Assembly: GCA_965215015.1 (NCBI GenBank)
Contig: OZ244042.1
Location: 5,824,001-5,888,000, forward strand
Direction: 5' to 3'
DNA: 64,000 nt
Source of the DNA: Candidatus Poribacteria bacterium
GTDB taxonomy: Bacteria; Poribacteria; WGA-4E; PCPOR2b
Shown here one piece after another: positions 1 to 64,000 of this stretch; within the stretch, counting starts at the first letter, position 1, and each line of letters opens with the position of its first letter. The notes below the pieces were generated by a model. That model saw only the letters and a program-made list of their open reading frames with translations. It made no database searches and had not been told where the DNA came from. A program made the translations under genes and the position numbers.

Positions 1-127
1 CTCCGATAACAATGGCGTCATACATTTCTTTTATCTCCTGACACGGTGATGCGTGAAGTGGAAATTGGGCAATTCAGATTGTAAACCATTTCGTTGACCG
101 ATCTTCGATTCCTATGTTCCCAATCAG

Positions 128-886
128 TTACTTCATCGAGAATGGTTTGGGGAGTTCATCAAAATTCTTCTCTCTGTTTTCGCCACGCAACAGAATCGTT
201 GACCAATTATGTCCCAATGAATTCCTTTCAACCTGCCTGACCCAAGGTGGAATGTAACGAATTGTCAATCCACACCGCCGCCGTGTAGATTGGTTGGGCA
301 GACTTCCGTGAATTAACATGCCGTGATGGATTGAGATTTCGCCCGCCTTCAAAACCAAATCTACAGCATTCTGCTCCTCATCCTCACTGACCGGCACTTC
401 CTGATCGATACTTAACAAATTTCCTTCCTGTCCGGATTTTCCATGATCCCGAATACCGGGACGGTGGGTGCCAGGAATCACACGCATACAACCGTTTTCG
501 CAGTCGCTGTCGTCAATCGCATACCATGCGGTAATTGCTTCAGACGGCTCAAGCCCCCAATAGGTTACATCCTGATGCCATGCCACAAACTTTTTTTCGT
601 CAGGACCATATTTACAAAAGAAGTGCGTTGATAGCATCATAACATCGGGGCCTATCAGGGCTTCGATACAGTCGAGAATCTTCGGATGGGTTGCAATCTC
701 CCAGATGAACTCTTCGTCAAAATGTCGGTTGACTAATCCGATATGACATTCCTCGCGCCCTAGTCTGGCTTCTAATTCGTCGAACAATTCCCGATGTTGG
801 GTGGCTTCGGTCTCGTCGGAAATTTGAACTTTTGGAACAAAGCCTTCTGTCTCATAAGCCTGGATTTGTCTTTCGGTGAGGGACAT
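128..886 (-). CDS. Phytanoyl-CoA dioxygenase (PhyH) family Fe(II)/2OG dioxygenase
   Basis: WHQD...HHG..IHGS..N....RR facial-triad pattern and NGCMRVIPGTH motif. Confidence 0.9.
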   Translation of the reverse strand: MSLTERQIQAYETEGFVPKVQISDETEATQHRELFDELEARLGREECHIGLVNRHFDEEFIWEIATHPKILDCIEALIGPDVMMLSTHFFCKYGPDEKKFVAWHQDVTYWGLEPSEAITAWYAIDDSDCENGCMRVIPGTHRPGIRDHGKSGQEGNLLSIDQEVPVSEDEEQNAVDLVLKAGEISIHHGMLIHGSLPNQSTRRRCGLTIRYIPPWVRQVERNSLGHNWSTILLRGENREKNFDELPKPFSMK

Positions 887-18485: not shown

Positions 18486-18510
18486 AAGCAATAATCCTCA
18501 AAAGGTATAT

Positions 18511-19149: not shown

Positions 19150-19193
19150 GTCACATCTCCGCAATGAGGGTATTCTGATTAAACGATGTGTAT

Positions 19194-19505
19194 CTACAGA
19201 AGCGTAATCTTGACATCAACGCCAGCTGGTAGATCTAAGCGCATTAGCGCATTAACTGTCTTGGGGGTCGTTTGTAAAATGTCCAATAACCGTTTGTGGA
19301 TTCGCATGGCGAACTGTTCACGGGATTTTTTGTCTTTGAAGGTCGATCGCTGTACAGTGTAAATATGCTGCTTAATCGGAAGCGGAATCGGACCTGAGAC
19401 TAATGCGCCTGTTCGCTTAGCGGTTTCTGCAATTTGGCCTGCAGAATGATCTAACAAACGATAATCAAATGATTTCAAACGAATCCTTATTTTCTGATTA
19501 TCCAT
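19194..19505 (-). CDS. rpsJ: 30S ribosomal protein S10
   Basis: KIRIRLK.FD, GPIPLP, SREQF, HKRL. Confidence 0.97.
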
Positions 19506-19525
19506 CAGTACTCCAGCTAAATTTG

Positions 19526-19571
19526 GTTCATTCACTCATTGGTGCATTAATGCACCAATGAGTGAATGAAC
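19526..19571. repeat. 46-bp perfect spacerless palindrome centred on TTAA between tuf and rpsJ
   Basis: GTTCATTCACTCATTGGTGCATT|AATGCACCAATGAGTGAATGAAC. Confidence 0.9.
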
Positions 19572-19575
19572 GAAA

Positions 19576-20775
19576 CTACTCAATAACTTCTGAAACAACG
19601 CCAGCTCCAACGGTGTGCCCGCCTTCACGAATCGCAAACCTCAGCTCCTCTTCCAGAGCGATAGGCTTGGTGAGTTCAACAGTAATTTGGACATTATCTC
19701 CGGGCATTACCATTTCAACACCTTCAGGAAGATGCATTATGCCAGTCACATCCGTTGTACGGAAGTAGAACTGCGGACGATAGTTACTGAAAAATGGCGT
19801 CCAACGCCCACCTTCGTCTTTGTTCAGAATATAGATTTCAGCCGCAAATCTTGTGTGTGGGGTAATACTGCCCGGAGCGGCGAGAACTTGCCCACGCTCA
19901 ACATCATCACGCTCAATACCGCGAAGCAGAACTCCGACATTATCACCCGCACGCCCTTCGTCAAGCAGCTTACGGAACATCTCTACACCGGTTGCAACCG
20001 TGCTGGAGGTGGGGGCCAGTCCAACAATCTCGACGGTGTCGCCGACGTGAACAATGCCGCGTTCGATACGGCCAGTCACAACTGTACCCCGCCCAGTGAT
20101 TGAGAAGATATCTTCCACAGGCATTAGGTAGGGGCGATCAATGTCTCGGACCGGCTCCGGAATCCAATTGTCACATGCCTCCATGAGCTCTAAAATTGAC
20201 TCACACTCCTCAGCATTCGGATTGCCGCCACTTTCCATCGCTTGGAGGGCAGACCCACTAATAACTGGAATGTCATCACCGGGGAACTCGTATTCAGTGA
20301 GTAGCTCTCGAACTTCGAGTTCTACCAATTCTAGGAGCTCCTCATCGTCAACCATGTCTGCCTTATTCAGGTAGACAACGAGGCTTGGCACGTTCACCTG
20401 CCGTGCCAAGAGAACGTGTTCACGAGTTTGGGGCATGGGACCGTCAGCGGCAGAGACAACAAGAATTGCGCCATCCATCTGCGCTGCACCGGTAATCATA
20501 TTTTTGATGTAGTCAGCGTGTCCGGGACAGTCTACGTGAGCGTAGTGTCGATTCTCCGTCTCATACTCAACGTGCGCGGTGTTTATGGTAATCCCACGCT
20601 CTTTTTCCTCAGGAGCTGCATCAATCTCTTCATAAGTTTTTACGTACTCGCTCCCAGAGAGATTTGACAACACCATGGTAATTGCAGCCGTTAATGTGGT
20701 TTTACCATGATCTACGTGTCCAATTGTGCCAACATTGATGTGCGGCTTAGTCCTTTCAAATTTTTCCTTTGCCAT
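19576..20775 (-). CDS. tuf: Elongation factor Tu
   Basis: [35 protein letters not shown]. Confidence 0.99.
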
Positions 20776-20865
20776 GTGTAAATCTCCTCACATTCTATTA
20801 AACTTAAGTAACCCCAAACCTCACTGATGAACGTTACCAACAAGCCATATCAACAGCGGGAACGG

Positions 20866-22959
20866 TTAAACAGAAAATCCTTTCGACGAGATAATTTCTT
20901 GAGCAATGCTCTGGGGAACATAACTATAATGTGCAAATTCCATCGAATAAGTTGCCCGTCCTTGCGTCAGGGAACGGAGCATTTTAACATAACCGAACAT
21001 TTCAGCAAGTGGAACATAGGCTTTAATGACCTGTATTCCGGACTTGGGGTGCATATCTGTCTGGAGAATTTGTGCACGCCGCGCATTTAAATCCCCCATT
21101 ACCTTTCCCAAATAGTCATCCGGAACAATAACTTCAATCTCCATGATTGGTTCAAGCAGTATCGGATCTGCGCGTTTCACCGCGTCTTTGAAGGCAATCC
21201 GAGCAGCGTTTGAAAATGCGATTTCTGAAGAATCAACGGGATGGTAAGAACCATCATACAATCGCACACCGACATCAACTAGTGGATAACCGCCTAAAAT
21301 CCCGGCAGTTATTCCCTCTTCAAGTCCCTTACGAACAGCGGGGATATATTCTTGGGGAATGGTGCCTCCCTTTATTTCATTAACAAATTCAAAACCGGCT
21401 CCCTGTTCGAGTGGGTAAATTTCAATAACCACATGTCCGAATTGACCACGCCCACCGGATTGCCGCACAAAACGCTCGTTGGCGTCTGCGGAACGCTGGA
21501 TAGTCTCACGATAAGCAACTTGAGGTTGACCAATCTCTGCCGAAACCTTAAATTCCCGAACCAAGCGATCTACGATTATCTCTAAATGTAATTCCCCCAT
21601 GCCGGACAGGACTGTTTGTCCTGTTTCTGGATCTTGATGAACCTTAAAAGTTGGGTCTTCTTCAGCCAACTTTGATAGTGCTATGTTCATCTTCTCAATG
21701 TCCGACTTTGTTTGAGGTTCAATAGCAATGGACATCACAGGAGATGGAAAGGCCATTGATTCCAATACAATCGGGGCATTTGGATCGCAAACGGTGTCGC
21801 CGGTCATCGCGGATTTGAAGCCAATGATGGCGGCGATATCACCCGCATAGATGGCTTGACGCTCCTCACGCTTGTTGGCGTGTAGCTGCATCAGCCTCCC
21901 GATCCTTTCAAACTTTCGGCGCGTACTATTGTATACAGTCATTCCTTTAGCCAAAACCCCGGAGTAAACGCGGAGGAATGTCAGCTTGCCAACATGTGGA
22001 TCGGTTGTAATTTTGAAGGCTAGTGCAGAAAAAGGCTCGTCGTCATTTGCTAAACGTGTCCCTTCCTCTTCAGCTTCTGGATTCAAGCCAGTTACCGGTG
22101 GTACATCTATTGGAGAGGGTAGGTAATCAACCACTGCATCTAGTAACGGTTGGACGCCTTTATTCTTAAGGGCTGTGCCGCACAGGACAGGAACCATTTT
22201 TCCGCTTAACGTCGCGCTCCTTAAACCCGCTTTGATTTCTTCCTCGGACAACTCAACCCCATCAATATATTTTACCAAGAGGTCATCATCACACTCGGCA
22301 ATTGCTTCCAACATTTGCTCCCGATATTCCAGAACACTCTCCATCATTTCATCTGGGATATCTGTATCGAACATAATCGATCCGAAACTCGCTTCGTCCC
22401 ATGTCAGTCCTTTCAGAGAAATCAAATCAACAATTCCACTAAATCTCTCGGAGGAGCCAATCGGCAGTTGAATTGGCACCGCTGAAGTCCCAAGCCGCTC
22501 AACCATCATTTCGACCGTTCGAAAGAAGTCCGCACCGGTTCGATCCATTTTATTAATAAGCGCGATACGTGGCACCTGATATTTATCTGCTTGTCTCCAA
22601 ACCGTTTCCGACTGGGGTTCCACGCCGCCAACTGCACAGAAAACAGCAACGGCTCCATCAAGGATTCGCAGCGATCTTTCGACTTCAACCGTAAAATCAA
22701 TATGTCCCGGAGTATCGATAATGTTGATACCATATCCATTCCATTGGCACGTTGTTGCGGCAGCGGTAATAGTAATCCCTCGTTCCTGTTCCTGTGCCAT
22801 CCAATCCATTGTCGTGGTGCCATCGTCAACCTCTCCCATACGATGCACTTTGCCTGTGTAGTACAACATGCGTTCCGTTACAGTTGTCTTGCCCGCATCA
22901 ATATGCGCCATGATGCCGATGTTTCGTGTATGGGTCAATGGAAATCGACGTTGCTCCAT
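20866..22959 (-). CDS. fusA: Elongation factor G (start may be up to 23022)
   Basis: [31 protein letters not shown]. Confidence 0.98.
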
Positions 22960-23089
22960 GGAACGCCGATTTTCAGAGGTCATTTGATTTTGTTTTTTAA
23001 GTCTCATTTTTTCTAAAACCATTCATGATACGGTAAAAAGATAAAGGTTTATTTAAAAAGAAGGTGCAAAGATACCCGGAACATCTATT

Positions 23090-23147
23090 TGAAACTGAGT
23101 TTTTGAGAAGAAACTCGGGGCTGTTGCGCGATTTCTTAACATGAGCC
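23090..23147 (-). repeat. Fragment of the GGCTCATGTTAAGAA-ended repeat in the rpsG-fusA spacer
   Basis: TTTCTTAACATGAGCC matches element ends at 27607/27732, 29699 and 45396. Confidence 0.55.
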
Positions 23148-23195
23148 AAAATAAAAAATTACCGCCCGATAGATTGGGGCTTCACTGAGCTCAGC

Positions 23196-23666
23196 TTACC
23201 AGCGATAGTGTGCAAATGCTCGATTCGCCTCCGCCATGCGATGTTGATCAAGTTTTCTGCGAATTGAAGATCCGTCATTCCTAGCGGCATCTAATAGTTC
23301 GCCCGCCAGCCGCTCTGCCATCGTTTTCTCTCCACGATCTCTTGCAGATTGAATAATCCAACGGAGTGCCAATGTTGTGCGACGTTCCGCTTTAACATCT
23401 ACTGGCACTTGGTAGGTTTGTCCCCCAACACGCCGAGACCGAATTTCAAGAACCGGCTTAACGTTGTTAATTGCTTCGTGGAAAACTGTAAGTCCATCCT
23501 GGTCGGTGCGTTTTTCAACAATGTCTATGCTATTGTATAGAATTGACCGAGCAACACTCTTCTTTCCACAAGCCATTAAGAAGTTTATAAATTTCGCCAC
23601 CAGTTTACTGTTATATTTTGGGTCCGGGAGTACGTCTCGTTTAACAACCTCTGTACGACGTGGCAT
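23196..23666 (-). CDS. rpsG: 30S ribosomal protein S7
   Basis: [29 protein letters not shown]. Confidence 0.98.
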
Positions 23667-39133: not shown

Positions 39134-39169
39134 AGAAAATAGAACCCACAGTGTTGGTATCTACTGTTC

Positions 39170-39402
39170 GTAGTAGCGCAATTCATTGCGCGTGAAATGG
39201 GTGCTGTTGCACCACAGCGTCGGTATCTATACGACTCACAACGCCCGATTCATCAGGCAACTACAATTCTCCGACAGTCGTAGGCACGCCCCGCGCCCCC
39301 TCCCCCTGCTTGCGGGGGGACTGAGGGGGGTAGCCGCATGCCGACTCCCTTAAAGACGCGGGTTGAAGGGCGCGCCTACAAACTCAAGAGCGTAACTCCT
39401 AA
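39170..39402 (+). repeat. Composite REP/MITE-like element
   Basis: GTAG-type REP at 39170-39193 plus a ~200-bp block homologous to the reverse complement of 47749-47930; ends GAGCGTAACTCCTAA. Confidence 0.75.
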
Positions 39403-44090: not shown

Positions 44091-44172
44091 AACGAGGTTC
44101 AGCCTGCCAAAATTATAGCATACTTCCCCTATAGAACGGACAAAAAAGTGTTGAACAGATGCGGTAACTATT

Positions 44173-44262
44173 AACCTTTAGCGTGAGTTGGTAAGGTTGT
44201 CGTTTCCACATCGTTCAACAGTTCATCAGTTCATTAAAGAAGAATTCATTTGTACATTTAGG
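44173..44262 (-). repeat. ~90-bp dispersed repeat (copy 2)
   Basis: Reverse complement aligns with 2345-2434. Confidence 0.75.
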
Positions 44263-51948: not shown

Positions 51949-52093
51949 AGCCTCGCGGTTGAAAGAGAGAGGAGTTGAGGAAGCGAGGGGGCGGGAAAAC
52001 GGGATAAAATTAACCGCAGACGCGAAGAACGCAGAGATTTTTATGTTTTTCTCTGTGACCTCTGCGGCTCTGTGAAATGTAATCAAGCTTTCA

Positions 52094-52117
52094 ACGCGCA
52101 ATAAATTGCGCTACTAC
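52094..52117 (-). repeat. GTAG-type REP
   Basis: Reverse complement GTAGTAGCGCAATTTATTGCGCGT; copies at 26140, 39170, 57958 and 58965. Confidence 0.75.
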
Positions 52118-52273
52118 GAACTAGAGAACAAAGCAGAAATATAGAATCACCCAGAAGACAGAGAAATCGCTAAAAGATTACAATAGGCGGCACGCCCCAC
52201 GGGCACGCCCCCTGCTGGCGGGGGATAGAGTTCTTAACATAAATGTCAACACGCCCTAGCAACTTGGGTGTAT

Positions 52274-55200
52274 TTAGATTAACGCCGCGCTGCAGATAAT
52301 CTTGGGAACAGCTTCATTCTCAAGTTGGTCATCCCGCTGCCTCGATTCCCATTCCCCCATGTTATATTGGTGGTAAAGGTCGATCAGATTTTGTAATAAT
52401 ACCGTTCCAGTCACACCGTTTCGGCGCAGTAAATTGAGATCTCGATTCACGGCGGTCGTCATTGTCCCACGGAACACCTTTTCCAACCTGCTAGCTTGAG
52501 CAGCAACGTCCTCATCTGACGCGTTCGCAAAAATGAGTCGCAATTCCTTTAGTATGTACTGTTGTGCTGGCTTCAGGGAAAGTTTGTGCTTGCGCTCCGA
52601 TTGCGAGTTTTTGATTTCCTGAGTGAATAACTGCTTGACCCCCATGAGGACTGCGTTATAATCCGTAGGCAACTCGCCCCCGGCAAGTTCCGGTTCACAC
52701 TTAATCTGATTGAGGATGCGGGAGATGTCTCTGGAAATAATGTTACCTTGTTCGTCTAAAAGGAACAGTTGTTGATAACGCCCCGCTTGGCAGAACAGAT
52801 AGGTTCCTTTTGAACCTATTGGCATTGCTGCGCGAATCCCGTCTCTCAGATTCGCAATTCGTTCGTACTCCATCGGGTCGTCGCGCCGCAGCTGCCTCAG
52901 GATTTCTTCGGCTTCGTTGAGGTCAATAGTCTTTTCATCTTCGTCATCTTCAAACAGGCCCAACTGCTCGCCTTCCCCCTCATAGATGGCATACATCGCT
53001 GCTTCGTTAAGTTGTTCCGAGTTATCGAGGATAGCCGCGTCCTCGCCAATCGTATCGTGAATATCTTGGATGCGATGCTGAAGGATTTGTCGCAACCCCA
53101 AATTTTGTTCGATGCCAGTTTCTGGTAGAAAGTTGAAGCCGTAAATCACATCGTGCGCGCTACCGATACGGTCAATACGCCCGAATCGCTGGATCAATCG
53201 TACGGGATTCCAGTGGAGGTCGTAGTTAATAATTTTGTCGCTGTCCTGTAAGTTGAGCCCTTCTGCCAGCACGTCGGTAGCGATGAGGGTAGACAATTCC
53301 GACTCTCCGCGCTGAAATTGGTACTCTGGATTTGCTTTCGGTGCGAAACGCCCCACTGCTCGTTCTTTGCTTTTGTCACCGCTATAGATTACATCAACAT
53401 CAGCCCGTTTGCCATTAGGGTTCAGGTTGCCAAACAGATAACGCGCTGTATCCGCATATTGGGTGAAGATTAGACATTTCCCCTCGTTAAGTGGCGGTTC
53501 CGCCAATCGTTTTTTGAGGATTTGCAACTTCGCATCTTGCGCGGCGGTGATTGGTGATACAAGCCCCAACATTGTGCGTAGCAATTGGATGTCATGTTCA
53601 ATATCTGCACGCAGTTCATCAATTTTGAAATCCGCAATATTGTATTGTACTGAAGCATGCCGCAACGCCTCCATCAGGTCCTGTTCCTCCGCCTCGTTGG
53701 GTTCGTAGAGGATGTTTTGTGCTGCCTCACCGGCAGGGACAATGCCACCTTCAAGGGCTTCGAGAAAGCGTTTATGGACCTCCAACAACCGATGCACCGT
53801 TACCTTAAAAGCGTGCACACTGGATTCAAACCGTTTGAATAGGAGTATCCGCATCAACCCACGAAGGTTTATTCCTGAGCTTTGCAAGTTGGTGTAAGGC
53901 TCTTGTTTCTGCTTTGCCTCGATCACGTAGTTCCAAAGCCCGTAACGGGCATAGGTTAATTCATCAGCCGAGGAGGAGCTCAACGGGCTGCCGCGCGGTG
54001 TTCCCAAATGCTCCCGCAGCTTAAAGTAAAGGCCCTGATAGGTGTCCTCGATATTGTAGGAGATAGTTTCTAAGACACGCTTCGGGAAGAACTGCTTTTC
54101 CCCACCGACAACGACGTAAGCCTTGCGATGTCCATCAAGGTACTCCTGAAATTTCGATGGATCAACGGGTTGGTCGGTCTTTCCATCGAAACCGTACCAG
54201 CGCAGGATGTGATTACGGGTGCGTCGGAGGAGGATATTCCTCAATAGGTCGGGGAGATTTTTTTCTCGCTTCTCAATCTGGCGAAAATATGTCCGCAGGT
54301 TGGGCGGATCTATTGGTAAATCGGTGACGTCATCGGGATGAAAGAGTTTCATCTGGTGGTATATGTCCCAAGCACTCTTGTTGCGCGGCGTCGCCGTGAG
54401 AAAACAACACCGCTGTCCGGCGGTTAAAAAGGTTTCCAACACTTTGTAGCGTTGCGTGTCGGAGTGGCGGAAATTATGGCTCTCGTCAACCAGTATGAAA
54501 TTCCGATCGCGGTATATCACGTCATCAAGAATATCCTGTCCACCGCCACTTTCTCGTAAAGCTCCTATAGAAAGGACACGGGCGTTGAGTTGGTACACCT
54601 CATTGTAGCGATCCCACATTTTAACCAACGGAGCGGGACAGATAATCAGTGGACGTGCCTTTTCCGTCCGTTCAAAATGCTTGACAATCGCTGCGCCGAT
54701 GTAGCTTTTACCGAGACCGACAACATCTGCAACAAAGGCTCCGCCATAATCCCGAATAATCTGCACCGCCTGTTGGACAGCAACTTTCTGGAAATCCGCT
54801 AACTGTTTGGTAATGTCATCTTCCCAGAGCATGTCCCCCTCATCGCCCCCTTCAAGACGGTCTTTAACCAATTCATAAAGTGTTTTCATGTAAATGTCAT
54901 AGGGACTCACCGGGGCAATCGCCCAAGATGATTGTAGTACCTCCATCAGAGATTCATCGAAATCCTGCGCTTCATCCCAGAGTTCGTCGAACCAGCGACA
55001 CAGTTCAGCATGATTGGCGTTCCCTTGCACCACAACGTTTAACTCGGTATTGTGGCTCACACCGGATAGCGTGAGGTTAGACGACCCCACAACAGCGATG
55101 CCCTTTTCGTAACGCTCCTTACCACCATAATCAAATATGTAGGCTTTGGCGTGGAGTCGCCCTTTGGTATAGACGCGGGCAAGTAGCCGCTTTTCTACTA

Positions 55201-55582
55201 TCATCTTTGCCAGCATTTTAATCAATGCCTCACTTTCATCGGTCTGGTCCATCAACTCGACCGACTCCGTGATATTCTCTGCGGTTTCTGCCCTCATCTG
55301 CTGATTTTTGGTTCGCTTGGGGTAAGTCTGGGCTTCTGCAACATTGGCAACCTGTTCTAATCTGCGATACCCTTCTGCTAGCTGCTCTAACGTCTCACGA
55401 TTGGTGGTATTGCCGATCAGCAGGCGGAGCTCTTTGACCTGCTGGAGCTCTTTCGCAATGCTTTGAAATCCTGATAGGAAAAAGTAACCCACTGCGAATC
55501 GTGCTCTTTCAGTAGAGTCGAGGATGAGGTTGATGTGGTCAACCAACTTTTCGTTGCGGTTGTCGATGACGTCGTGTTTCAT
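52274..55582 (-). CDS. PLD-nuclease + SNF2-type SF2 helicase fusion (restriction/defence-associated)
   Basis: HAKAYIFD (HxKxxxxD) and GSSNLT; ADVVGLGKS, DESH, TATP, QRFGRIDR. Confidence 0.9.
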   Translation of the reverse strand: MKHDVIDNRNEKLVDHINLILDSTERARFAVGYFFLSGFQSIAKELQQVKELRLLIGNTTNRETLEQLAEGYRRLEQVANVAEAQTYPKRTKNQQMRAETAENITESVELMDQTDESEALIKMLAKMIVEKRLLARVYTKGRLHAKAYIFDYGGKERYEKGIAVVGSSNLTLSGVSHNTELNVVVQGNANHAELCRWFDELWDEAQDFDESLMEVLQSSWAIAPVSPYDIYMKTLYELVKDRLEGGDEGDMLWEDDITKQLADFQKVAVQQAVQIIRDYGGAFVADVVGLGKSYIGAAIVKHFERTEKARPLIICPAPLVKMWDRYNEVYQLNARVLSIGALRESGGGQDILDDVIYRDRNFILVDESHNFRHSDTQRYKVLETFLTAGQRCCFLTATPRNKSAWDIYHQMKLFHPDDVTDLPIDPPNLRTYFRQIEKREKNLPDLLRNILLRRTRNHILRWYGFDGKTDQPVDPSKFQEYLDGHRKAYVVVGGEKQFFPKRVLETISYNIEDTYQGLYFKLREHLGTPRGSPLSSSSADELTYARYGLWNYVIEAKQKQEPYTNLQSSGINLRGLMRILLFKRFESSVHAFKVTVHRLLEVHKRFLEALEGGIVPAGEAAQNILYEPNEAEEQDLMEALRHASVQYNIADFKIDELRADIEHDIQLLRTMLGLVSPITAAQDAKLQILKKRLAEPPLNEGKCLIFTQYADTARYLFGNLNPNGKRADVDVIYSGDKSKERAVGRFAPKANPEYQFQRGESELSTLIATDVLAEGLNLQDSDKIINYDLHWNPVRLIQRFGRIDRIGSAHDVIYGFNFLPETGIEQNLGLRQILQHRIQDIHDTIGEDAAILDNSEQLNEAAMYAIYEGEGEQLGLFEDDEDEKTIDLNEAEEILRQLRRDDPMEYERIANLRDGIRAAMPIGSKGTYLFCQAGRYQQLFLLDEQGNIISRDISRILNQIKCEPELAGGELPTDYNAVLMGVKQLFTQEIKNSQSERKHKLSLKPAQQYILKELRLIFANASDEDVAAQASRLEKVFRGTMTTAVNRDLNLLRRNGVTGTVLLQNLIDLYHQYNMGEWESRQRDDQLENEAVPKIICSAALI

Positions 55583-55633
55583 TTCGGTTGCTTTCCCTAA
55601 TTTTTTTCGTTCAATCCCTTAAGGAATGAATGG

Positions 55634-55951
55634 TTACTCTGTCCGCAACGTTTGTCCGATATATTCGTCGTGTCGCTCGCTGAGATTAGTGGCTTTGTAT
55701 TCTAACGTACCCGCCAACGCTAGTAGTGGATCGGGATTGTCGGACATCGTTTTCCGTAAGTAACTGTCGTTTTCTACTATCTTGTCTAAGGCACTTTCGG
55801 CAGATAAATTTGCCTGCTTGTGTTCACGCCTTTCAACTAGAGCTACAATCCATCGAACGGTCATTTCCTCGGGAGCGTTCCCAAATTGTTGGGCAATACG
55901 TTTTAGGGAATGATACAATCTGTTCTCAAGTTTGACCGTTAATGTTTGCAT
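55634..55951 (-). CDS. Antitoxin-like protein (RHH-like N terminus), no toxin adjacent
   Basis: MQTLTVKLE..LY..LKR.A start; DPLL.LAG....LSERHDEY tail; AGGAG RBS. Confidence 0.55.
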   Translation of the reverse strand: MQTLTVKLENRLYHSLKRIAQQFGNAPEEMTVRWIVALVERREHKQANLSAESALDKIVENDSYLRKTMSDNPDPLLALAGTLEYKATNLSERHDEYIGQTLRTE

Positions 55952-55983
55952 TGGCTTGTATCTCCTACGGGATGTGATCGTTA

Positions 55984-56454
55984 TTACTCCCTTGCCCAAT
56001 CCACCAGTGCTTTATCCGGAGATGGGATGTCATTGATGGATGTGAAATAGTAGCGTTCCCATCCGAGATGAGGCAGACCGCTGAAAATCATCAGGTTGAG
56101 TGGGTATTCATCGCTATCGGCGGCATGTCGGAAGTCGTCCCGAAATAGGAAGGTGGGCTTGCCTAGTGCTATCGCTATCCCTAGCTCAATCATGACTCCT
56201 TCATCTGGCGGTATTCCGTTCACGACCGCAAAAATAGCGTCCGCGTCGAATACGTCCTGTTTGTCCTGCTGTCCAATTCGGTACGCCCAGTCGGAGGAGG
56301 ATCTGTCTTGGTTATTGCGTTCAAACGGCTCCCATACCTCTAAGCCAATCGCTTCCAATGCCTTGACGAGAGCGGGTAACACGGTTTCCCGCTGCTGCTC
56401 TGAGAAGCCGTAGGGATTCGCAAGATATATTATCTTTTTTTTATTTATGGTCAT
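55984..56454 (-). CDS. Nucleoside 2-deoxyribosyltransferase family protein
   Basis: IYLA.P, D...V..AD, D.G...ELG.A.ALGKP catalytic Glu motif. Confidence 0.85.
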   Translation of the reverse strand: MTINKKKIIYLANPYGFSEQQRETVLPALVKALEAIGLEVWEPFERNNQDRSSSDWAYRIGQQDKQDVFDADAIFAVVNGIPPDEGVMIELGIAIALGKPTFLFRDDFRHAADSDEYPLNLMIFSGLPHLGWERYYFTSINDIPSPDKALVDWARE

Positions 56455-56459
56455 CGGTC

Positions 56460-57683
56460 TTACAATTTCCTTTCTTCTTGCAGGGATTTGGCCGCAAAAA
56501 TTGTTAAGCGTAATTCTTCGCCGAATAGTTCGTATACAGGGATTTTACCGCTCAGTTTCTCACTTTCGTTCAAAATGATGCCAACCCCTTCACCCCGACG
56601 TTCTAAAAAGTGTCGTCGCACTACCTGTGCATCCATATCATCGTTGAGTGTCGTTTCCGAAAGTAGGCGAGCGAGGAGTTCGTTACGGGTCGCTTGATTG
56701 TAGCGCAAATCGTCTACCGTTAAGGTATTTGCCAATGCACCCGGCGAATAGAGTTCCAACCGATCCATGAACATAAACAGACGAATCTTCGATCCAGCTT
56801 TTGAATAATCTCTATGTACGACGGCGTTAACCACTGCCTCAAAAATGGCTCTCATACTGTATTGTGATCGCTCTATTCTACCAATTTCCTTACGAGCCGA
56901 TACCTGGTTGTGTTTTTGAACAAATTTGAAGGCATCCACAATTTGTTGGTCCAGCGGCCCCCTAAAATCCTTAGCATCAATCTGGTAGTTCGCATCCCTT
57001 TCTATGCTATTATAGAAAACAGCTTGAATGAAACTGTTATAGAGGTAATCGTCCGGGCTATCATGACACATCAACAAACCGGCTACCGAGGCGCGGTACT
57101 CCTGACCCTCTTTGGCCAGCAAACGTCTTTTAAGTAGCAAGTTTTCTATCTTCCCACGATCAGTTGCTCCTTCTGTGATAAATCGCTGATACAGCGTTTC
57201 CTTTAATGTGTCTTTGTGGGTGTTGGGTACGAACTGTTCGTCAAAGGAGATTCTATGTGCCTGTGAGCGGCTTTGTAGCAATCGCCCCAGCTGCTCGGTG
57301 GTCATCTCCCTTTTGCTGCTGCCTTGGCGGAGGAAATAACCGTTAGATGTTTTGTGGACAAACGGGCTACGAGGCACCCCTATTTTTAGCAGATTTTTAT
57401 TATCCATCCGCAGCTTTTCTGTAACAATGTCAACCATGGGGTCAATGTTGTCCCGGCATATTTCAACCACTGTTTTCTCGATCCTGTCCAGATCTTGGCG
57501 GCTAATACCGATAATTTCGCTATCATCCTCAACACCGATCAGTATCACCCCACCGTTAGCGTTGGCGAAAGCAGCGATTTCATCAGCCAGGCCCTCTCTG
57601 TGAGGCAACTCTCTTTTAAATTCAATCGTTGAGTCCTCTCCCAAATCTATTTTTTCAATGAGCTCAGTTAAGCTGTCAAACAT
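56460..57683 (-). CDS. Schlafen/AlbA_2 domain + HATPase_c_4-like protein
   Basis: GE...IEFK, AAFAN..GG...IGV.D, EAVVNAVVHRDY, SPG.L, RN..LA..L, E..G.G. Confidence 0.88.
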   Translation of the reverse strand: MFDSLTELIEKIDLGEDSTIEFKRELPHREGLADEIAAFANANGGVILIGVEDDSEIIGISRQDLDRIEKTVVEICRDNIDPMVDIVTEKLRMDNKNLLKIGVPRSPFVHKTSNGYFLRQGSSKREMTTEQLGRLLQSRSQAHRISFDEQFVPNTHKDTLKETLYQRFITEGATDRGKIENLLLKRRLLAKEGQEYRASVAGLLMCHDSPDDYLYNSFIQAVFYNSIERDANYQIDAKDFRGPLDQQIVDAFKFVQKHNQVSARKEIGRIERSQYSMRAIFEAVVNAVVHRDYSKAGSKIRLFMFMDRLELYSPGALANTLTVDDLRYNQATRNELLARLLSETTLNDDMDAQVVRRHFLERRGEGVGIILNESEKLSGKIPVYELFGEELRLTIFAAKSLQEERKL

Positions 57684-57782
57684 TGCTTATTCCCCAAATC
57701 AATATATTAACTTTTGGTGCGAGTTGGTGAGACTGTCGTTTCCACATCTAAGCCCCCCTTCCCCCGCAAGCAGGGGGTTCTT

Positions 57783-58050
57783 TTCGACTTCCATGACCGC
57801 AACGCGAAAGAAAAAACCAGAATTTAGAGGTCCTCTAACCCGAGATTGGATGAGCTGTGGCGGACAATTTTGGGGAGAATCTAAATCTGTTAACATAAAC
57901 ATATAAGGGGGGCCGCAGCTAATCGATTCAGTTCTAAGGATTACCCCGTTTAGGCTCGTAGTAGCGCAATTCATTGCGCGTGGAATAGCCCCAGAACGCT
58001 TGCAGCGAGTGCACCCTCAACTCCAAGGATTACGCTGTTTAGGCGCATTA
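57783..58050 (-). pseudogene. Decayed copy of the DUF4276-like gene, with an inserted REP
   Basis: 57783-57935 is near-identical to 60929-61083; 58008-58050 matches 61189-61230. Confidence 0.8.
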
Positions 58051-58200
58051 GCCGTAAGCCTAACAAGTGGGAGTTGTCAACCTTCACGTTGAAAACATGA
58101 AGGTTATAAATCCTCCCCCTAACAATCAGCTAACAGAGAGACTAACAGACAGTTTTAAGCCAGAAGGTTATAAATCTTTTTGTTCAGCAAAAAGCCAACA

Positions 58201-58716
58201 TCAACTATCGTTGGCTCTTGGTGGGTTCTGACCATGATGTGTTAAGTGGTTGATATGGTTCTGGTTAAGTTGTCGGATGCCTGCTTCTATGTCCGATAGC
58301 CGCTGATTCATCTCAGTAAAACGATAATTGGTTTCGACTTGCATATCAGATAAACGCTGATTCATCTCAGTAAAACGATGATTGGTTTCGACTTGCATGT
58401 CAGATAATCGTTGATTGGTATCATCAATGCGCTTGTTTGTATCGTCGAATCGCTGGTTCATCGTGCCGATGACTTCATCAATGCGCTTGTTTGTATCGTC
58501 GAATCGCTGGTTCATCGTGCCGATGACTTCAACGAAACGCTTGTCCATCCGGTCTTCGAGGCGTTCAAACGCGTGAAAGAGCATCTCACTATGTTTTTCT
58601 ATCTTCTTATCGTTTTGCCCAATGCGGTAGAACATAATCGCTACATTCCCAATGAACGCAACCACAGCGAATGCCACCAGTATCAGGTGACTTGGGCTCC
58701 AGTCTGCAAAACTCAT
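58201..58716 (-). CDS. Membrane-anchored coiled-coil repeat protein, copy 1 (171 aa)
   Basis: MSFADWSPSH plus a TM helix, 7/11-residue repeats, C-terminal LNQNHINHLTHHG; AGGAAGG upstream. Confidence 0.8.
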   Translation of the reverse strand: MSFADWSPSHLILVAFAVVAFIGNVAIMFYRIGQNDKKIEKHSEMLFHAFERLEDRMDKRFVEVIGTMNQRFDDTNKRIDEVIGTMNQRFDDTNKRIDDTNQRLSDMQVETNHRFTEMNQRLSDMQVETNYRFTEMNQRLSDIEAGIRQLNQNHINHLTHHGQNPPRANDS

Positions 58717-58861
58717 TTGTATCGTGTCCTTCCTTTTGGCCGCTAGGGTTTGGCGGATGATTATTACTGTCTGCATTGTCAATCGTCGCAGCCTAACGGA
58801 TAGCACGCATTCAAAAATAGCCAATCAACTCAGAGAAGGGAATCGCTAGATACCTTCCCAC

Positions 58862-59057
58862 TCAGCTCTGAAAGGCATCCGAAACTAATTGGGCGCCGCG
58901 GATGCGGTCTAAGGTGACCCCGCAGCTGAGCGATTACGTTCTAAGGATTGCCCCGTTTAGGCTAGTAGGAGCGCAATTCATGCCGCGTAGAATAGCCCCC
59001 AAACGCTTGCAGCGAGTGCACCCTCAACTCCAAGGATTACGCTGTTTAGGCGCATTA
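58862..59057 (-). pseudogene. Decayed, internally deleted copy of the DUF4276-like gene
   Basis: Pieces match 60599-60649, 61051-61083 and 61189-61230; REP at 58965. Confidence 0.7.
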
Positions 59058-59207
59058 GCCGTAAGCCTAACAAGTGGGAGTTGTCAACATTCATGTTGAA
59101 AACATGAAGGTTATAAGTCCTCCCCCTAACAATCAGCTAACAGAGAGACTAACAGACAGTTTTAAGCCAGAAGGTTATAAATCTTTTTGTTCAGCAAAAA
59201 GCCAACA

Positions 59208-59735
59208 TCAACTATCGTTGGCTCTTGGTGGGTTCTGACCATGATGTGTTAAGTGGTTGATATGGTTCTGGTTAAGTTGTCGGAGGCTCGCTTCTATGTC
59301 CGATAGCCGCTGATTCATCTCAGTAAAACGATGATTCGTTTCGGCTTGCATATCAGATAAACGCTGATTCATCTCAGTAAAACGATGATTGGTTTCGGCT
59401 TGCATCTCAGTAAAACGATGATTGGTTTCGGCTTGCATATCAGATAAACGCTGATTGGTTTCGGCTTGCATGTCAGATAATCGTTGATTGGTATCATCAA
59501 TGCGCTTGTTTGTCTCGTCGAATCGCTGGTTCATGCTGCCGATGACTTCAACGAAACGCTTGTCCATCCGGTCTTCGAGCCGTTCAAACGCGTGAAAGAG
59601 CGTCTCACTATATTTGTCTATCTTCTTATCGTTTTGCCCAATGCGGTAGAACATAATCGCTACATTCCCAATGAACGCAACGACAGCGAATGCCACCAGT
59701 ATCAGGTGACTTGGGCTCCAGTCTGCAAAGCTCAT
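59208..59735 (-). CDS. Membrane-anchored coiled-coil repeat protein, copy 2 (175 aa)
   Basis: Paralog of copy 1 with a different repeat order. Confidence 0.8.
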   Translation of the reverse strand: MSFADWSPSHLILVAFAVVAFIGNVAIMFYRIGQNDKKIDKYSETLFHAFERLEDRMDKRFVEVIGSMNQRFDETNKRIDDTNQRLSDMQAETNQRLSDMQAETNHRFTEMQAETNHRFTEMNQRLSDMQAETNHRFTEMNQRLSDIEASLRQLNQNHINHLTHHGQNPPRANDS

Positions 59736-59880
59736 TTGTATCGTCTCCTTCCTTTTGGCCGCTGGAGTTTGTCGGATGATTATTACTGTCTGCATCGTCA
59801 ATTGTCGCAGACTAACGGATACCACGGATTCAAAAATAGCCAATCAACTCAGAGAAGGGAATCGCTAGATACCTTCCCAC

Positions 59881-59987
59881 TCAGCTCTGAAACGCGTCGG
59901 AAACTAATTGTGCGCCGCGGATGCGGTCTAAGGTGGCCCCGCGGCTGAGCGATTATGTTCTAACGATTACCCTGTTTAGGCTCATTA
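59881..59987 (-). pseudogene. Decayed, internally deleted copy of the DUF4276-like gene
   Basis: 3' end, middle fragment and 5' end of 60599-61228 joined directly. Confidence 0.7.
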
Positions 59988-60078
59988 GCCGCAAACCTAA
60001 CAATCAGCTAACAGAGAGACTAACAGACAGTTTTAAGCCAGGAGGTTATAAATCTTTTTGTTCAGCAAAAAGCCAACA

Positions 60079-60453
60079 TCAACTATCGTTGGCTCTTGGT
60101 GGGTTCTGCCCATGATGTGTTAAGTGGTTGATATGGTTCTGGTTGAGTTTGCTCATTTCGACTTGCATATCAGACAATCTCTGATTCATTTCAGTTCGGA
60201 CGCCTGCGATCTCAGTTCGGACGCTTGCGATTTCGGTTCGCAAGCCTGCGATTTGCTGATTGACTTCAACGAATCGCTTGTCCATCCGTTCCTCGAGGCG
60301 TTCGATGGCATGAAGGAATGTAGCGACTTGCTTCTCTTGCCGTTTTTCGCTCTGCCCCATGCGATAGAACATGACAGCGACATGCCCAATGAACGCAACG
60401 ACAGCGAATGCCACCAGTATCAGGTGACTTGGGCTCCAGTCTGCAAAACTCAT
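60079..60453 (-). CDS. Membrane-anchored coiled-coil repeat protein, copy 3 (124 aa)
   Basis: Same N and C termini; shorter stalk with IAxxRTE heptads. Confidence 0.8.
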   Translation of the reverse strand: MSFADWSPSHLILVAFAVVAFIGHVAVMFYRMGQSEKRQEKQVATFLHAIERLEERMDKRFVEVNQQIAGLRTEIASVRTEIAGVRTEMNQRLSDMQVEMSKLNQNHINHLTHHGQNPPRANDS

Positions 60454-60598
60454 TTGTATCGTGTCCTTCCTTTTGGCCGCTGGAGTTTGGCGGATGATTA
60501 TTACTGTCTGCATCGTCAATTGTCGCAGACTAACGGATAGCACGCATTCAAAAATAGCCAATCAACTCAGAGAAGGGAATCGCTAGATACCTTCCCAC

Positions 60599-61228
60599 TC
60601 AGCTCTGAAAAACATCGGAAACTAATTGTGCGCCGCGGAGGCAGTCTAATGTTCTCTTCAGACTTGGAGATACAACAGCAGCACGTGCCAAATCCCAGTG
60701 GGTTTGTACGAATTCACTGAGGCAATTGTTATATTCAGGACCTACTATTGCGGTCGTCGCTCTTGGTGCAGGCACTAGCCGATCCCGCAATCTTGTCTTC
60801 TTACTCCTTCGGGCAAGTGAGACCAGAAATTCTTTGGGATTGTCTATATCGTCTGTGTTGGACGGAATCCGATTGACTGGTATTGATAGAAATTTTGCGA
60901 GGGCACTCCGATCCGCCATAATCCAAGATTCGACTTCCATGACCGCAACGCGAAAGAAAAAACCAGAATTTAGAGGGCCTCTAACCCAAGATTGGATGAG
61001 CTGTGGCGGACAATTTTGGGGAGAATCCAAATCTGTTAACATAAACATATAAGGTGGCCCCGCAGCTGAGCGATTCAGTTCTACGGCTCTTCTTTGAAGG
61101 TAAGAATTCCCTTGATATATATTTGGGATTCTTTGCACAATTTCGATACCAAAATGCTTTAGAATTTTAGTCGAAACTGCATTGCTTAGTGCATCCTCAA
61201 CTGCAAGGATTACGCTGTTTAGGCTCAT
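60599..61228 (-). CDS. DUF4276-like (TOPRIM-like) partner of the ABC ATPase
   Basis: AVED, TDLD, EVESW.MAD, PKE, SPSL motifs; TAATG overlap with the ATPase gene. Confidence 0.7.
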   Translation of the reverse strand: MSLNSVILAVEDALSNAVSTKILKHFGIEIVQRIPNIYQGNSYLQRRAVELNRSAAGPPYMFMLTDLDSPQNCPPQLIQSWVRGPLNSGFFFRVAVMEVESWIMADRSALAKFLSIPVNRIPSNTDDIDNPKEFLVSLARRSKKTRLRDRLVPAPRATTAIVGPEYNNCLSEFVQTHWDLARAAVVSPSLKRTLDCLRGAQLVSDVFQS

Positions 61229-62379
61229 TATAGGAAACTCAACTGTTCAGCATTTTCGGGTTTGGCTCTTGAAAGCACGGCTTCACTGACTGTCAATCCA
61301 GCCTCAAGGAGTGTCCGCACTTCAACAATATCAGAGGCTATTTCGACTGCGGTTCCCTCTTTTGCAGGCGTGAGCAAAAGCACCTCCCTTCCATCGATGC
61401 CCGGGTCTGTCAGAAGCGCATCGCTATGTGTGCTAACAAAGACCTGGCGCCGCCGGCTTCTTTGTATGTTAGAAATAAGTGCCGCGAGCTGTGATACAAC
61501 GCCCGCGTTTAATGAGAGTTCGGGTTCCTCCAATAAGAGGACCGACTCACTTTCAAGGAGTGCCCATAATAGCCCCAGAAGCCGCAGCGTCCCGTCAGAA
61601 AATTGATCTTCGCGCTGCCGACCTGCATTTGGACACCAGTGGGAATAAAGTGCCTGTAAATGGGGGCGCCCAGTGGTTTCGTCGCGAATAAATTCCAAAC
61701 CCTCAAGTTGAGGCACAGCAATTTTGAGGACTTGCTCGATTCTTCTTAGGCGTGAACGGCGGGTTTTTTCCGGGACACTCGCTACCCTTTCAAGGAACCC
61801 TTGCCCAAACGGGTCGTCTTCAACGATTCTTCCCTGAATCGAATCGGCAAACCGTAAGAGTTGAGGAACCAGATGCAAGTATGTGATGGTCTGAAGGAAA
61901 CGCGCTATTTCCCGAAATTCGGCATTGACATTAATCTGCTCGAGAAAGGTCTGCGTGAGCCGCTCTTCATCCGCTTTATCTTCTCCATTGGGCCTACTAA
62001 GGAGCTGTTCACCATCTTTCCACACGCATTCATGAGTGAGATAGGTCCGGCGGTGTCCACGCGTTTCTTGGCGAAATCCGAGTCCATATATCCAGGTTGC
62101 AGAGGAATCCGAATCGTCCGCAAGGTGAATTTCAATTGTAACTTCTGGATCGCGCCGCGCTGCCAAGCTACGGATTTTAGAAACACCCCCTCGATCTTTA
62201 ACAGCTTTCTGAAAGCCCCCTCCCTCCGCTTTTACGATATCTCGAAGAAAACGAAAAATGTCAAGGAGGTTAGATTTTCCGGACGCGTTCGCGCCAATGA
62301 TAAACTGGCGTTCGCTAAGACGCACACCAATCTGTTGAAAATTACGCCAGTTTTTCGCTATGAGCTGACTGATTATCAT
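61228..62379 (-). CDS. AAA_21/ABC-type (SMC/OLD-like) ATPase
   Basis: KNWRNF, GANASGKS, SDGTLR, LLLEEPE, STHS. Confidence 0.88.
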   Translation of the reverse strand: MIISQLIAKNWRNFQQIGVRLSERQFIIGANASGKSNLLDIFRFLRDIVKAEGGGFQKAVKDRGGVSKIRSLAARRDPEVTIEIHLADDSDSSATWIYGLGFRQETRGHRRTYLTHECVWKDGEQLLSRPNGEDKADEERLTQTFLEQINVNAEFREIARFLQTITYLHLVPQLLRFADSIQGRIVEDDPFGQGFLERVASVPEKTRRSRLRRIEQVLKIAVPQLEGLEFIRDETTGRPHLQALYSHWCPNAGRQREDQFSDGTLRLLGLLWALLESESVLLLEEPELSLNAGVVSQLAALISNIQRSRRRQVFVSTHSDALLTDPGIDGREVLLLTPAKEGTAVEIASDIVEVRTLLEAGLTVSEAVLSRAKPENAEQLSFL

Positions 62380-62509
62380 AACGGTAACTCCCAATAGCTT
62401 TGTGTAGATTTCCCAAAGTAGCAGACCCGCCCCGCGGGGGGATTCTTAGGGGGTGTCGGGCGATCTATGGTTGGATTGCCTTACCGCAAACTCAAGTGTC
62501 TAACTCCTA

Positions 62510-62935
62510 TTACATTTCGATTATGACAAACACGCACATGATGAAACCAATCTCCACTATATAAAAAATAACAAGAGTGATAGAAAAGATTGCAGCTATC
62601 CAGCTACATTTGGGCTTGTTTTTGTGCTTCGTAGGATTCATCTCGAAATCGGTATCGGATTGAACTCTGATTTCATCGTATACCTGTCGAAATAACCTCT
62701 CCTGCCAGAGAAAGTATCCGTCCAGAATCCAAAATCCTAGGACGGGGAGAATAAGCACCAAGACAAAATATGGGTCAAAATCTGGGTTTTGTATGTTCTG
62801 TCTGGTGATTAAAACCATCGCTGCAACAATGATGGTCATGCTCCAACTTTTGACTAAGAAACTGTTGCTTCCCAAACGGTTAATAACAGCTTGGGTCATT
62901 TTCAAATGTTCTACGACCTTTTCTGTACAGTTCAT
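62510..62935 (-). CDS. Small multi-pass membrane protein next to the TIR gene (candidate effector)
   Basis: HL...Q.VI.RL..NSF..K.W, FW.LDGY.L..ER.FR..YD; about 3 TM segments. Confidence 0.7.
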   Translation of the reverse strand: MNCTEKVVEHLKMTQAVINRLGSNSFLVKSWSMTIIVAAMVLITRQNIQNPDFDPYFVLVLILPVLGFWILDGYFLWQERLFRQVYDEIRVQSDTDFEMNPTKHKNKPKCSWIAAIFSITLVIFYIVEIGFIMCVFVIIEM

Positions 62936-63024
62936 GGGTTTATCCTCCAATTTTGAAATGTGGTAGCCTAACCATAAAGCTAGTATCCTTTTGAGGACTT
63001 CCTCTACAATGAAGATTTCCTCGT

Positions 63025-63693
63025 TTACCCTTGCACCGTTTTCGTTATATTGTAATCACCTATCCTTTCTCTTATACCTTCTGCTGTTTCAAGATAATAT
63101 TCTTTGTTTTCTATAAAATCGCCCCATTTAACCGAATCAATGTAGGAGCTATGGCCCATATAAACAGGGTTGCTAGGAGGATGGCGTAGGCAGTTGTTAA
63201 ACGTAGGTCTTTTTATGTTAAACATATTATCTCGTAGTATCTGAAAGAGACTAAGGGTCTTTAGAACTCTGCAATGGCAAGAAGGGCAGGTATCATCTTC
63301 AAGAAAGTAGCTATATGATGAATATTGGTCCGGCAAAACAACTGCTAATATCGCATTTGTTCGGCTTGTACGCCCATGCCGTACAATTTCTTTCAGAGAG
63401 TATGAAACTTCCCACGGAATCCATTGGTCAGATTCATTTTGCCTCGAATCTTTCATATTTGGTGAAATTAGGACAAGTGTTAAACTGCTGTCGTATATTT
63501 TGTCTTTTAGGTGAGATGCGATAGTTTCATCCTGAAATTCGCTTAAATCTTCATCACCTTCCCCTTTATAGATTTCATCATTTTCAAATAGCTCAATTAG
63601 TTCATCAACATAAGCACGGGCAGTTGTTCCCCCCCTAATAGACTGAACACTATCATCAGCATGTTTATAGGAAACAAAAATTTTTCTGGCCAT
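63025..63693 (-). CDS. TIR-domain protein (ThsB/DUF1863-like)
   Basis: [30 protein letters not shown] with the presumed catalytic Glu. Confidence 0.85.
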
Positions 63694-63848
63694 TTAGTTG
63701 TTACTCCTTATTAATTGCCCCGCTCCTCCATTGTCTGAATCGCGGATTGTCGCAGATTCAAAGATGGCACGAATTCAAGAATCCGCGCTATCGGTGTCAG
63801 TTGTTTAATCCAAGATTCGGACCATTTATTCTGTTGCTCCCGCCACAA

Positions 63849-64000
63849 TTAGAGCGGGCAGACTCCATCTACTTCGATGATAGGAGGCTCAACGTCTGTG
63901 TCCTGTCGAGGACAACGCCCTTTAAATCTGACTTGTAACTCTCTTGAGTTCAAAAGCTCTAAATCCAATTGAAGTACATCTTCAACCGTGTTTGAAAGTT
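63849..64000 (-). CDS. 3' end of a gene starting beyond the window
   Basis: Open frame ...LSNTVEDVLQLDLELLNSRELQVRFKGRCPRQDTDVEPPIIEVDGVCPL* running off the edge. Confidence 0.4.
   Translation of the reverse strand, partial: LSNTVEDVLQLDLELLNSRELQVRFKGRCPRQDTDVEPPIIEVDGVCPL

Follow-up and report, generated by a model that had tools for sequence, protein, structure and literature searches.

We analysed a 64,000-nucleotide stretch of the genome of a Candidatus Poribacteria bacterium (GenBank assembly GCA_965215015.1, contig OZ244042.1, positions 5,824,001 to 5,888,000 of the forward strand; hereafter the window) and, within it, a tandem array of three small coiled-coil genes that lies directly 3' of, and on the same strand as, a HEC-01 pair, an ABC ATPase gene (HEC-01A) and a TOPRIM-like nuclease gene (HEC-01B). 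An earlier note, made from the letters of this stretch, had described three paralogs of 171, 175 and 124 aa whose stop codons lie 1007 and 871 bp apart and which share their termini; all of this was confirmed, and the three paralogs are real. The reading that we favour, with slightly better than even confidence, is that these genes encode a membrane-anchored trimer whose conserved, histidine-clamped tip is the working end, and that they were multiplied here by local duplication beside a defence gene. The array and the genes next to it are arranged as follows (TM, transmembrane):

57783..58050, minus strand: truncated HEC-01B after copy 1, 91-94% identical
57958..58007, no strand: palindromic repeat within the nuclease remnant, with a second copy at 58964-59014
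58201..58716, minus strand: coiled-coil gene copy 1, 171 aa, with a short predicted periplasmic tail, one TM helix, a 7/11-residue stalk and a histidine tip
58862..59057, minus strand: gutted HEC-01B between copies 2 and 1, 86-93% identical
59208..59735, minus strand: coiled-coil gene copy 2, 175 aa
59881..59987, minus strand: gutted HEC-01B between copies 3 and 2 (nt -1..24, 146..179 and 577..630 of the gene, colinear, 89-92% identical)
59988..60078, minus strand: 3' flank common to the coiled-coil genes; at 59058-59207 and 58051-58200 it recurs with a 59 bp insert
60079..60453, minus strand: coiled-coil gene copy 3, 124 aa, a mosaic whose ends are of the array type and whose middle derives from a different paralog lineage
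60454..60598, minus strand: 145 bp spacer from the HEC-01B stop to the coiled-coil start, also present at 59736-59880 and 58717-58861
60599..61228, minus strand: intact HEC-01B, from which the remnants derive (TOPRIM-like, weak DUF4276 match; PADLOC HEC-01B, E 7.4e-56)
61228..62394, minus strand: HEC-01A ABC ATPase, present once and not part of the amplified unit (PADLOC HEC-01A, E 1.6e-156)

Organisation and history of the array

Residues 1-23 and the last 22 residues are identical across the three copies. A purine-rich ribosome site lies just 5' of the Met start in the array genes, and the equivalent Met is the start in their homologs; because both favour this Met, the longer TTG starts offered by the open reading frame (ORF) finder are unsupported. 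The stalks of copies 1 and 2 divide exactly into Arg-initiated units of 7 and 11 residues and that of copy 3 into IAxxRTE-type heptads, just as the earlier note had proposed. In a self-BLAST of the window the main repeated blocks stand far beyond chance (E 0 to 1e-72), and no fourth copy of the coiled-coil gene is present elsewhere in the 64 kb. Promoter-like matches in the 145 bp spacers occur at chance level, and the promoter and terminator scans were likewise at or near chance.

Conserved flanks, also described previously, are present, but the upstream one extends for about 200 bp rather than about 150 bp and opens with the final 54 nt of HEC-01B. Similarly, while the array itself is real, the repeated unit is larger than had been supposed, as the nuclease gene was co-amplified and then deleted. 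The remnant between copies 2 and 1 is composed of HEC-01B nt -1..41, a palindromic insert of about 50 bp, and nt 4..24, 143..179 and 577..630, and the remnant after copy 1 is composed of nt -1..41, the palindromic insert, and nt 3..24 and 143..300. The insert, a putative REP-like element, recurs in part at 39168-39198 and 52090-52119. Because all three spacers hold colinear pieces of HEC-01B, the alignments show that the amplified unit comprises HEC-01B and the coiled-coil gene, repeated in tandem.

At present the three coiled-coil frames are open, the extra nuclease copies are gutted and the ATPase gene is single. These remnants support well a history in which tandem amplification of the two-gene unit produced the triplet, short deletions gutted the surplus nuclease copies while the three coiled-coil frames stayed open, and slippage of 7- and 11-codon units, together with recombination with other paralogs, diversified the stalks; selection probably acted against nuclease copies that had no ATPase to match. 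That the triplet is instead an assembly artefact might be suspected of a tandem repeat in what is probably a metagenome-assembled genome; it is, however, extremely improbable, given that the copies differ by 3-28% depending on the segment, that the three nuclease remnants differ in structure, and that another assembly contains two related proteins sharing this C terminus.

The differences among the copies had been thought to be confined to the stalk repeats, which does not hold for copy 3. Its codons 1-22 and last 24 codons are 98.5% and 96% identical to those of copies 1 and 2, whereas codons 23-64 are only 72-73% identical, with 12-13 synonymous and 15 non-synonymous changes; across all three copies, identity is 93-100% in the flanks, in codons 1-22 and in the last 24 codons. 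Synonymous divergence of this extent, restricted to one block, points to recombination rather than selection alone. When sequences are ranked by likeness to copies 1 and 2 in the segment following the TM helix, copy 3 comes 69th-70th of 111; the nearest relatives of those two copies include P0007, P0004 and P0008, probably dispersed paralogs in the same genome as the array. In trees of 24 hand-picked rows, copies 1-3 are identical in the end segments, and in the middle segment copy 3 falls into a separate clade (97/94 support). By these sequence comparisons, copy 3 is a mosaic.

Membrane anchor, stalk and histidine tip

The anatomy of the protein was examined in 167 non-redundant full-length members of the family, and the counts below refer to this set. 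Each member contains a single hydrophobic 19-mer (TM hydropathy of at least 2.0), preceded by a tail of about 10 residues, and in each the excess of Lys and Arg on the C side of this helix is +2 to +8, so that by the positive-inside rule the topology is predicted to be N-out/C-in with a cytoplasmic stalk. The same bias in all 167 argues against the surface decoy that had been suggested. In contrast, the other structural proposals of the earlier note, a membrane anchor and a mixed heptad/hendecad coiled coil of variable length, were borne out by the TM helix in all members, the 7/11-residue units and the AlphaFold2 model of copy 3, a single helix spanning residues 8-115 (mean pLDDT 86.9). A polar Gln, His or Asn lies within the TM helix in 166 of the 167, and a nearly invariant His sits at what is predicted to be the outer membrane face (WSPSH motif).

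Three chains of copy 3 were then modelled together, with two zinc ions riding along that the score leaves aside. The homotrimer scored 0.70 against 0.00 for the best of three controls, a mark that was reached by 20 of 30 proteins with solved structures that are pairs of one chain and by 1 of 23 with solved structures that are single chains, counts that are only a rough guide here. The runs agree in at least 90% of contacts with a partner pLDDT of at least 80, and the contacts are parallel and in register, with Leu103, His107 and His110 in the confident interface. The structure prediction, which had been put forward as a check, thus supported a homotrimer, and the model predicts a parallel one with its histidines on the three-fold axis.

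The tip histidines, at +3, +6 and +10, are present in 166, 167 and 166 members, respectively. In the alignment they fall on consecutive core positions a, d and a, the a/d hydrophobic pattern leads straight into them, and near-invariant Asn, Gln, Asn, Ile and Leu residues occupy non-core positions of the tip. The earlier description of a histidine tip that possibly binds metal is therefore upheld with respect to the three core residues, and for binding itself an analogy can be offered: designed trimers whose core contains two or three histidines are able to bind Ni, Zn or Cu (PMC9523718), and for this reason stacked His3 layers may bind a divalent metal of the Zn, Ni or Cu type and form a clamp at the tip. 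As far as they are described there, the designed peptides IZ-3adH and IZ(5)-2a3adH resemble the family in having two or three His layers in a three-stranded core (predicted here); they are synthetic and soluble, while the family is natural and membrane-anchored, with the His order a-d-a and putative metal binding. Our literature search, with subscription papers and supplements outside its reach, found a core arrangement of three His layers only for designed peptides.

Trimeric stalks (predicted here), repeat amplification and a beta-layer-type motif in seven members are also reminiscent of DUF1640 (CCDC90-like) and DUF3782 proteins, as far as the sources at hand describe them. However, the family lacks the nuclease domain of DUF3782, and DUF1640 proteins are anchored at the C terminus, unlike the N-terminally anchored family. 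Of 79 members, 3 had a CCDC90-like match at E<=0.001, the strongest at 1.3e-5. The beta-layer motif, [aliphatic]-A-T-K-x-[DE], is described in homotrimers (PMC4786415). It is absent from the three window proteins, but a relaxed form of it in seven divergent members (7 of 93 GTDB matches) speaks for a trimer.

Stalk length varies widely. The distance from Trp to tip ranges from 59 to 196 residues across the family, and it differs at orthologous sites. In the seven genomes that share the pafA-era site it is 84, 87, 91, 94, 95, 95 and 95, and at another site held in common the values are 73 and 106. Nevertheless, 149 of the 167 lengths fall into four mod-7 classes reachable by 7/11 steps, a count for which the mod-7 phase was picked after seeing the data and related sequences were taken as independent. 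As coiled-coil phase is kept while length is free, the stalk would be a spacer, not a ruler. The ruler of the earlier note, which would set a distance from the membrane, would suit a rod that is rigid, keeps its ends conserved and changes length in discrete steps, but the spread of lengths, above all at orthologous sites, largely refutes it and leaves it highly unlikely. Finally, the TM and pre-tip segments show a pN/pS of 0.53-0.55 with pS near saturation (0.71-0.93), and therefore the protein is under selection.

The family and its genomic neighbours

With copy 1 as query, 581 homologs were found, and Candidatus Poribacteria is the sole named organism among the 120 listed. Scanning GTDB with the tip motif gave 98 stretches, 94 of them in Candidatus Poribacteria (28 assemblies), with up to eight sites per chromosome (eight over 0.2-6.2 Mb in OZ242036.1). 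The four matches outside Poribacteria, and one further locus (L079), were rejected as chance because they encode no TM-coiled-coil protein; L079 and a doubtful fragment (L045) were kept in the tally of 73 loci used below. Several members combine unrelated N-terminal helices with the same tip, which is therefore the defining unit of the family.

None of the three array proteins reaches the curated cut-off of any Pfam or NCBIfam family, with generic coiled-coil matches only, and in PADLOC none of them matches a HEC-01 model; what they match there, weakly and through coiled coil (E>=4e-6), are long proteins of unrelated kinds. A profile search of 1.84 billion representatives returned 360 matches at E<=0.001 and 70 at 1e-10, the tail being generic coiled coil and unnamed proteins; the top ESM Atlas clusters, at 0.92, are unnamed and mostly from Actinomycetota where known, and the tip alone reached at most 0.86. 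The best PDB sequence match, apolipoprotein A-IV (E 2e-4), was set aside as compositional, and Foldseek gave no match in PDB or BFVD, a result that says little when the query is a single helix. No longer fused form turned up in 8,000 scored candidates, which is weak evidence, and the literature search, within the reach stated above, gave no description of the family, of its peptide motifs or of a Poribacteria coiled-coil family. Taken together, these comparisons define a phylum-wide, multicopy family that is not yet catalogued and whose members are small proteins crossing the inner membrane once; its hosts, the Poribacteria, are common symbionts of sponges. As matters stand, we do not regard it as a new defence system.

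The setting of the array is nonetheless a defence-like island, as the earlier note had recognised: HEC-01A/B are accompanied by genes for a ThsB-type TIR protein, a PDC-M50A-like membrane protein, a Schlafen/AlbA_2 protein and a PLD-SNF2 helicase. To survey the family at large, 767 ORFs were called in the 73 loci, and 250 cluster representatives within 1.8 kb (near) were compared with 140 drawn at random from the 165 that lie at least 2.6 kb away (far), with defence and mobile-element labels given by hand. Defence-type domains were found in 23 of 250 near and 7 of 140 far representatives (p=0.17), or 24 and 9 with borderline labels (p=0.34), and mobile-element genes in 9 of 250 and 6 of 140. 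A defence gene lies within 1.8 kb at 14 of the 73 loci (17 with borderline labels); other loci adjoin pepA, trxB, era, rph, alr or transporter genes, and the neighbours are mostly housekeeping. The earlier note had named genome-wide scatter without defence enrichment as the finding that would count against it, and scatter over up to eight sites per chromosome with p=0.17 comes largely to that.

These data bear on the view of that note that the proteins form a dedicated system with the ATPase/TOPRIM pair. In its strongest form, the array would be a diversifying sensor or decoy accessory to HEC-01, amplified to widen recognition, and the position directly 3' of HEC-01A/B, where the island also holds TIR, Schlafen and PLD-helicase genes, together with the retention of three frames while the nuclease copies decayed, speaks in its favour; two close homologs (135 and 150 aa) with the same C terminus but other stalk lengths suggest such an array in another strain as well. 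However, a HEC-01-like pair occurs at only 1 of the 73 loci and is distant (23% identity), so that a fixed partnership is not supported, and the enrichment of defence genes is not significant. In addition, the available part of the preprint describes HEC-01 as a two-gene candidate system, with no coiled-coil partner, that gave no protection in assays (bioRxiv 10.1101/2024.01.29.577857), whereas here a coiled-coil gene is co-amplified with HEC-01B. Moreover, it is the generic stalk that varies and the tip that stays unchanged, whereas a diversifying sensor would be expected to show the opposite. We therefore consider this explanation unlikely.

A second alternative is that the proteins are domesticated, phage-derived releasin- or holin-like oligomers. 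As abortive or stress effectors, gated by the His tip, they would permeabilise or depolarise the inner membrane. In the portions of the reports at hand, Mu gp25 releasin (DUF2730) is a 99 aa, single-pass, N-out/C-in protein (PMC9239132), and LysF1b of mycobacteriophages is N-out/C-in with a single N-terminal TM helix and a charged cytoplasmic part (PMC13056207). The family matches the first (PF10805, phrog_736) in size class, its single N-terminal TM helix, predicted topology and helical cytoplasmic part, and the second in size class, the helix, predicted topology and charged cytoplasmic part. Indeed, phrog_736, which is the gp25 family (E 5.3e-33), is the commonest PHROG match, with 25 of 79 members (best E 1e-7). 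A precomputed PF10805 label is attached to 4 of 120 homologs, a releasin cluster appears in the ESM Atlas at 0.84 (a lead only), nearly all members carry the polar TM residue, and integrase or recombinase genes are found close to certain copies (L049, L060).

Against this, 54 of the 79 members have no match to phrog_736, and PF10805 is absent among the matches of copies 1 and 3 (E<=0.1), from the best 25 of copy 2 and from the top 25 families for the 79 members. Profile-profile comparison (hhalign) with gp25/DUF2730 gave probabilities of 5-26%, and against a narrow 17-sequence DUF2730 profile the members scored a median of 7.2 and a maximum of 15.5 bits, which overlaps unrelated coiled coils (up to 15.3 bits; shuffles about 0, reversals 2.8). 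The proline break and LLLE end of DUF2730 are absent from the family, and its His tip and variable length are absent from DUF2730. Likewise, gp25 belongs to Mu-like lysis cassettes near an endolysin, whereas the family is chromosomal and multicopy, and no endolysin family was found in the window or among the 390 neighbour ORFs scanned of the 767 called. LysF1b, too, belongs to lysis cassettes, outside which the family lies; copy 3 lacks a phage match, with nothing significant in a tblastn search of 50,697 phage records (two matches at E 0.6), and the likeness is one of architecture. The family is thus built like a releasin, but its membership, judged by sequence, is not shown, and we regard a releasin- or holin-like function as rather unlikely.

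A proposed histidine-clamped rod among exchanged genes

We return to the reading favoured above, a membrane-anchored trimer with a working tip. In this proposal, the stalk would reach about 12-20 nm (predicted) into the cytoplasm and act as a spacer whose register has to be preserved although its length is not fixed; a divalent metal in the His3 layers would clamp the free end of the rod, and the clamped tip may serve as a docking surface for a cytoplasmic partner. The gene itself would be a frequent passenger of variable chromosomal sites, with HEC-01 adjacency as one landing. The locus clearly documents the self-editing of a defence island, in which a nuclease and its passenger were amplified, the nuclease copies deleted, and the passenger kept and recombined. 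The three histidine layers in the predicted trimer core are a testable feature of this proposal.

Several observations weigh against it. With regard to the trimer, His114 lies outside the confident interface, the trimer was the sole oligomer state modelled, so that a dimer or tetramer is also possible, and long coiled coils may score well by likeness to solved ones; furthermore, the trimer motif RhxxhE occurs in its strict form in only 33 of the 167 members. The mod-7 phase, as stated, was chosen after the fact. Conservation of the tip in the GTDB set is circular, as the scan used the tip (in the set found by BLAST and HMM searches, the motif is present in 116 of 120). Twelve of 76 matches in long loci sit in ORFs of less than 70 aa, and therefore copies decay often. 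Selection against extra nuclease alone could explain why three frames were kept and the nuclease lost. Finally, defence genes are somewhat commoner near the gene (9.2% versus 5.0%, not significant), and the control is a conservative one, near and far genes having come in part from the same loci, so that a modest enrichment may remain.

Another possibility is that the gene matters mainly as DNA, being a dispersed repeat with conserved ends that let cargo integrate, amplify and swap by homologous recombination while the protein is weakly selected. Consistent with this, same-strand pairs flank cargo at L014, L047 and L049 as they do in the window, copy 3 is a mosaic and fragments are common, the gene is constant at the pafA-era site while the adjoining cargo differs across seven genomes, and a repeat of about 85 bp is found in 21 of 95 3' flanks and also before unrelated genes. 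However, conserved amino acids with near-saturated pS argue for selection on the protein, the lengths keep coiled-coil phase and not merely frame, the upstream flanks at unrelated sites share nothing beyond the ribosome site, and the window contains no copy of the 85 bp repeat. Nor did the copies prove to have a mobile-element end in common, as the 95 flanks formed 53 clusters. We consider this possibility distinctly unlikely.

Elements of both can be joined in a bolder proposal, fairly unlikely in our judgement, in which the protein would be a natural, membrane-anchored counterpart of the designed His-layer metallo-trimers and act as a metal- or pH-gated switch, with the outer-face His of the WSPSH motif, the mid-membrane polar residue and three His layers at the cytoplasmic tip, and in which Poribacteria would multiply the rod, swap its stalks and head defence-containing cargo arrays with the 85 bp repeat. 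If true, its cassette component would amount to an undescribed gene-exchange platform.

The repeat of about 85 bp is common to 3' flanks of coiled-coil genes in several Poribacteria genomes. It also precedes unrelated genes on the same strand (restriction, TIR-TPR, T5orf172 and small genes), abuts the ribosome site, and looks like a cassette boundary. Copies lie at L020 4914-4996, 4567-4649 and 3142-3230 and at L052 5040-5120, 6641-6698 and 7497-7565, with further examples at L022, L050, L058, L060, L032, L062, L069, L072 and L078. No credible Rfam match was found at the two loci scanned, and RNAalifold gave no consensus structure. A model with a hairpin and kissing loop pairs 78.7% of cells, yet 98-271 of 500 shuffles reach that value; it has no covariation support and was rejected.

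Individual loci offer further observations. The site between the Pup-ligase/proteasome operon and era holds the coiled-coil gene in L032, L038, L051, L062, L072, L073 and L078, where the cargo, depending on the genome, is none, a DNA methylase, GmrSD, TIR-TPR or lipoproteins. L014 (4186-6968) contains an independent tandem duplication of a two-gene unit made up of another coiled-coil gene and a family gene, the second copy of which has lost the TM helix and stalk by an in-frame deletion, and the CRISPR-Cas locus of L077 (3029-8371) has a member placed between its RAMP genes and cas6/cas2. Small coiled-coil membrane proteins of other kinds adjoin members at L036 5042-5311, L070 3827-4171 and L014 4186-4683, one of them with a related His-containing end, and Poribacteria seem to carry several such families.

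In the window, the ThsB-type TIR gene (E 2.9e-80) and the PDC-M50A-like gene that follows it (E 2.2e-37) occupy 62510-63693 and are a probable pair of TIR and membrane effector. The rest of the island, at 52274-57683, contains the PLD-SNF2 helicase gene, a nucleoside 2-deoxyribosyltransferase-like gene and the Schlafen/AlbA_2-HATPase gene. Rfam gave no match in 52,000-64,000. A 51 bp stretch 5' of the ThsB-type gene (63732-63782) is 76-78% identical to part of the coiled-coil upstream spacer (60505-60555), and a short repeat related to it is also found in L027, L034, L052, L006, L009, L044 and L067. A second family of short palindromic repeats is present at 57704-57775, 2395-2439, 44169-44212 and 2014-2059, the first of these adjoining the end of the last HEC-01B remnant. 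Farther away, 5558-23666 carries a ribosomal protein operon with rpoA, secY, tuf and fusA, as labelled from the translations.

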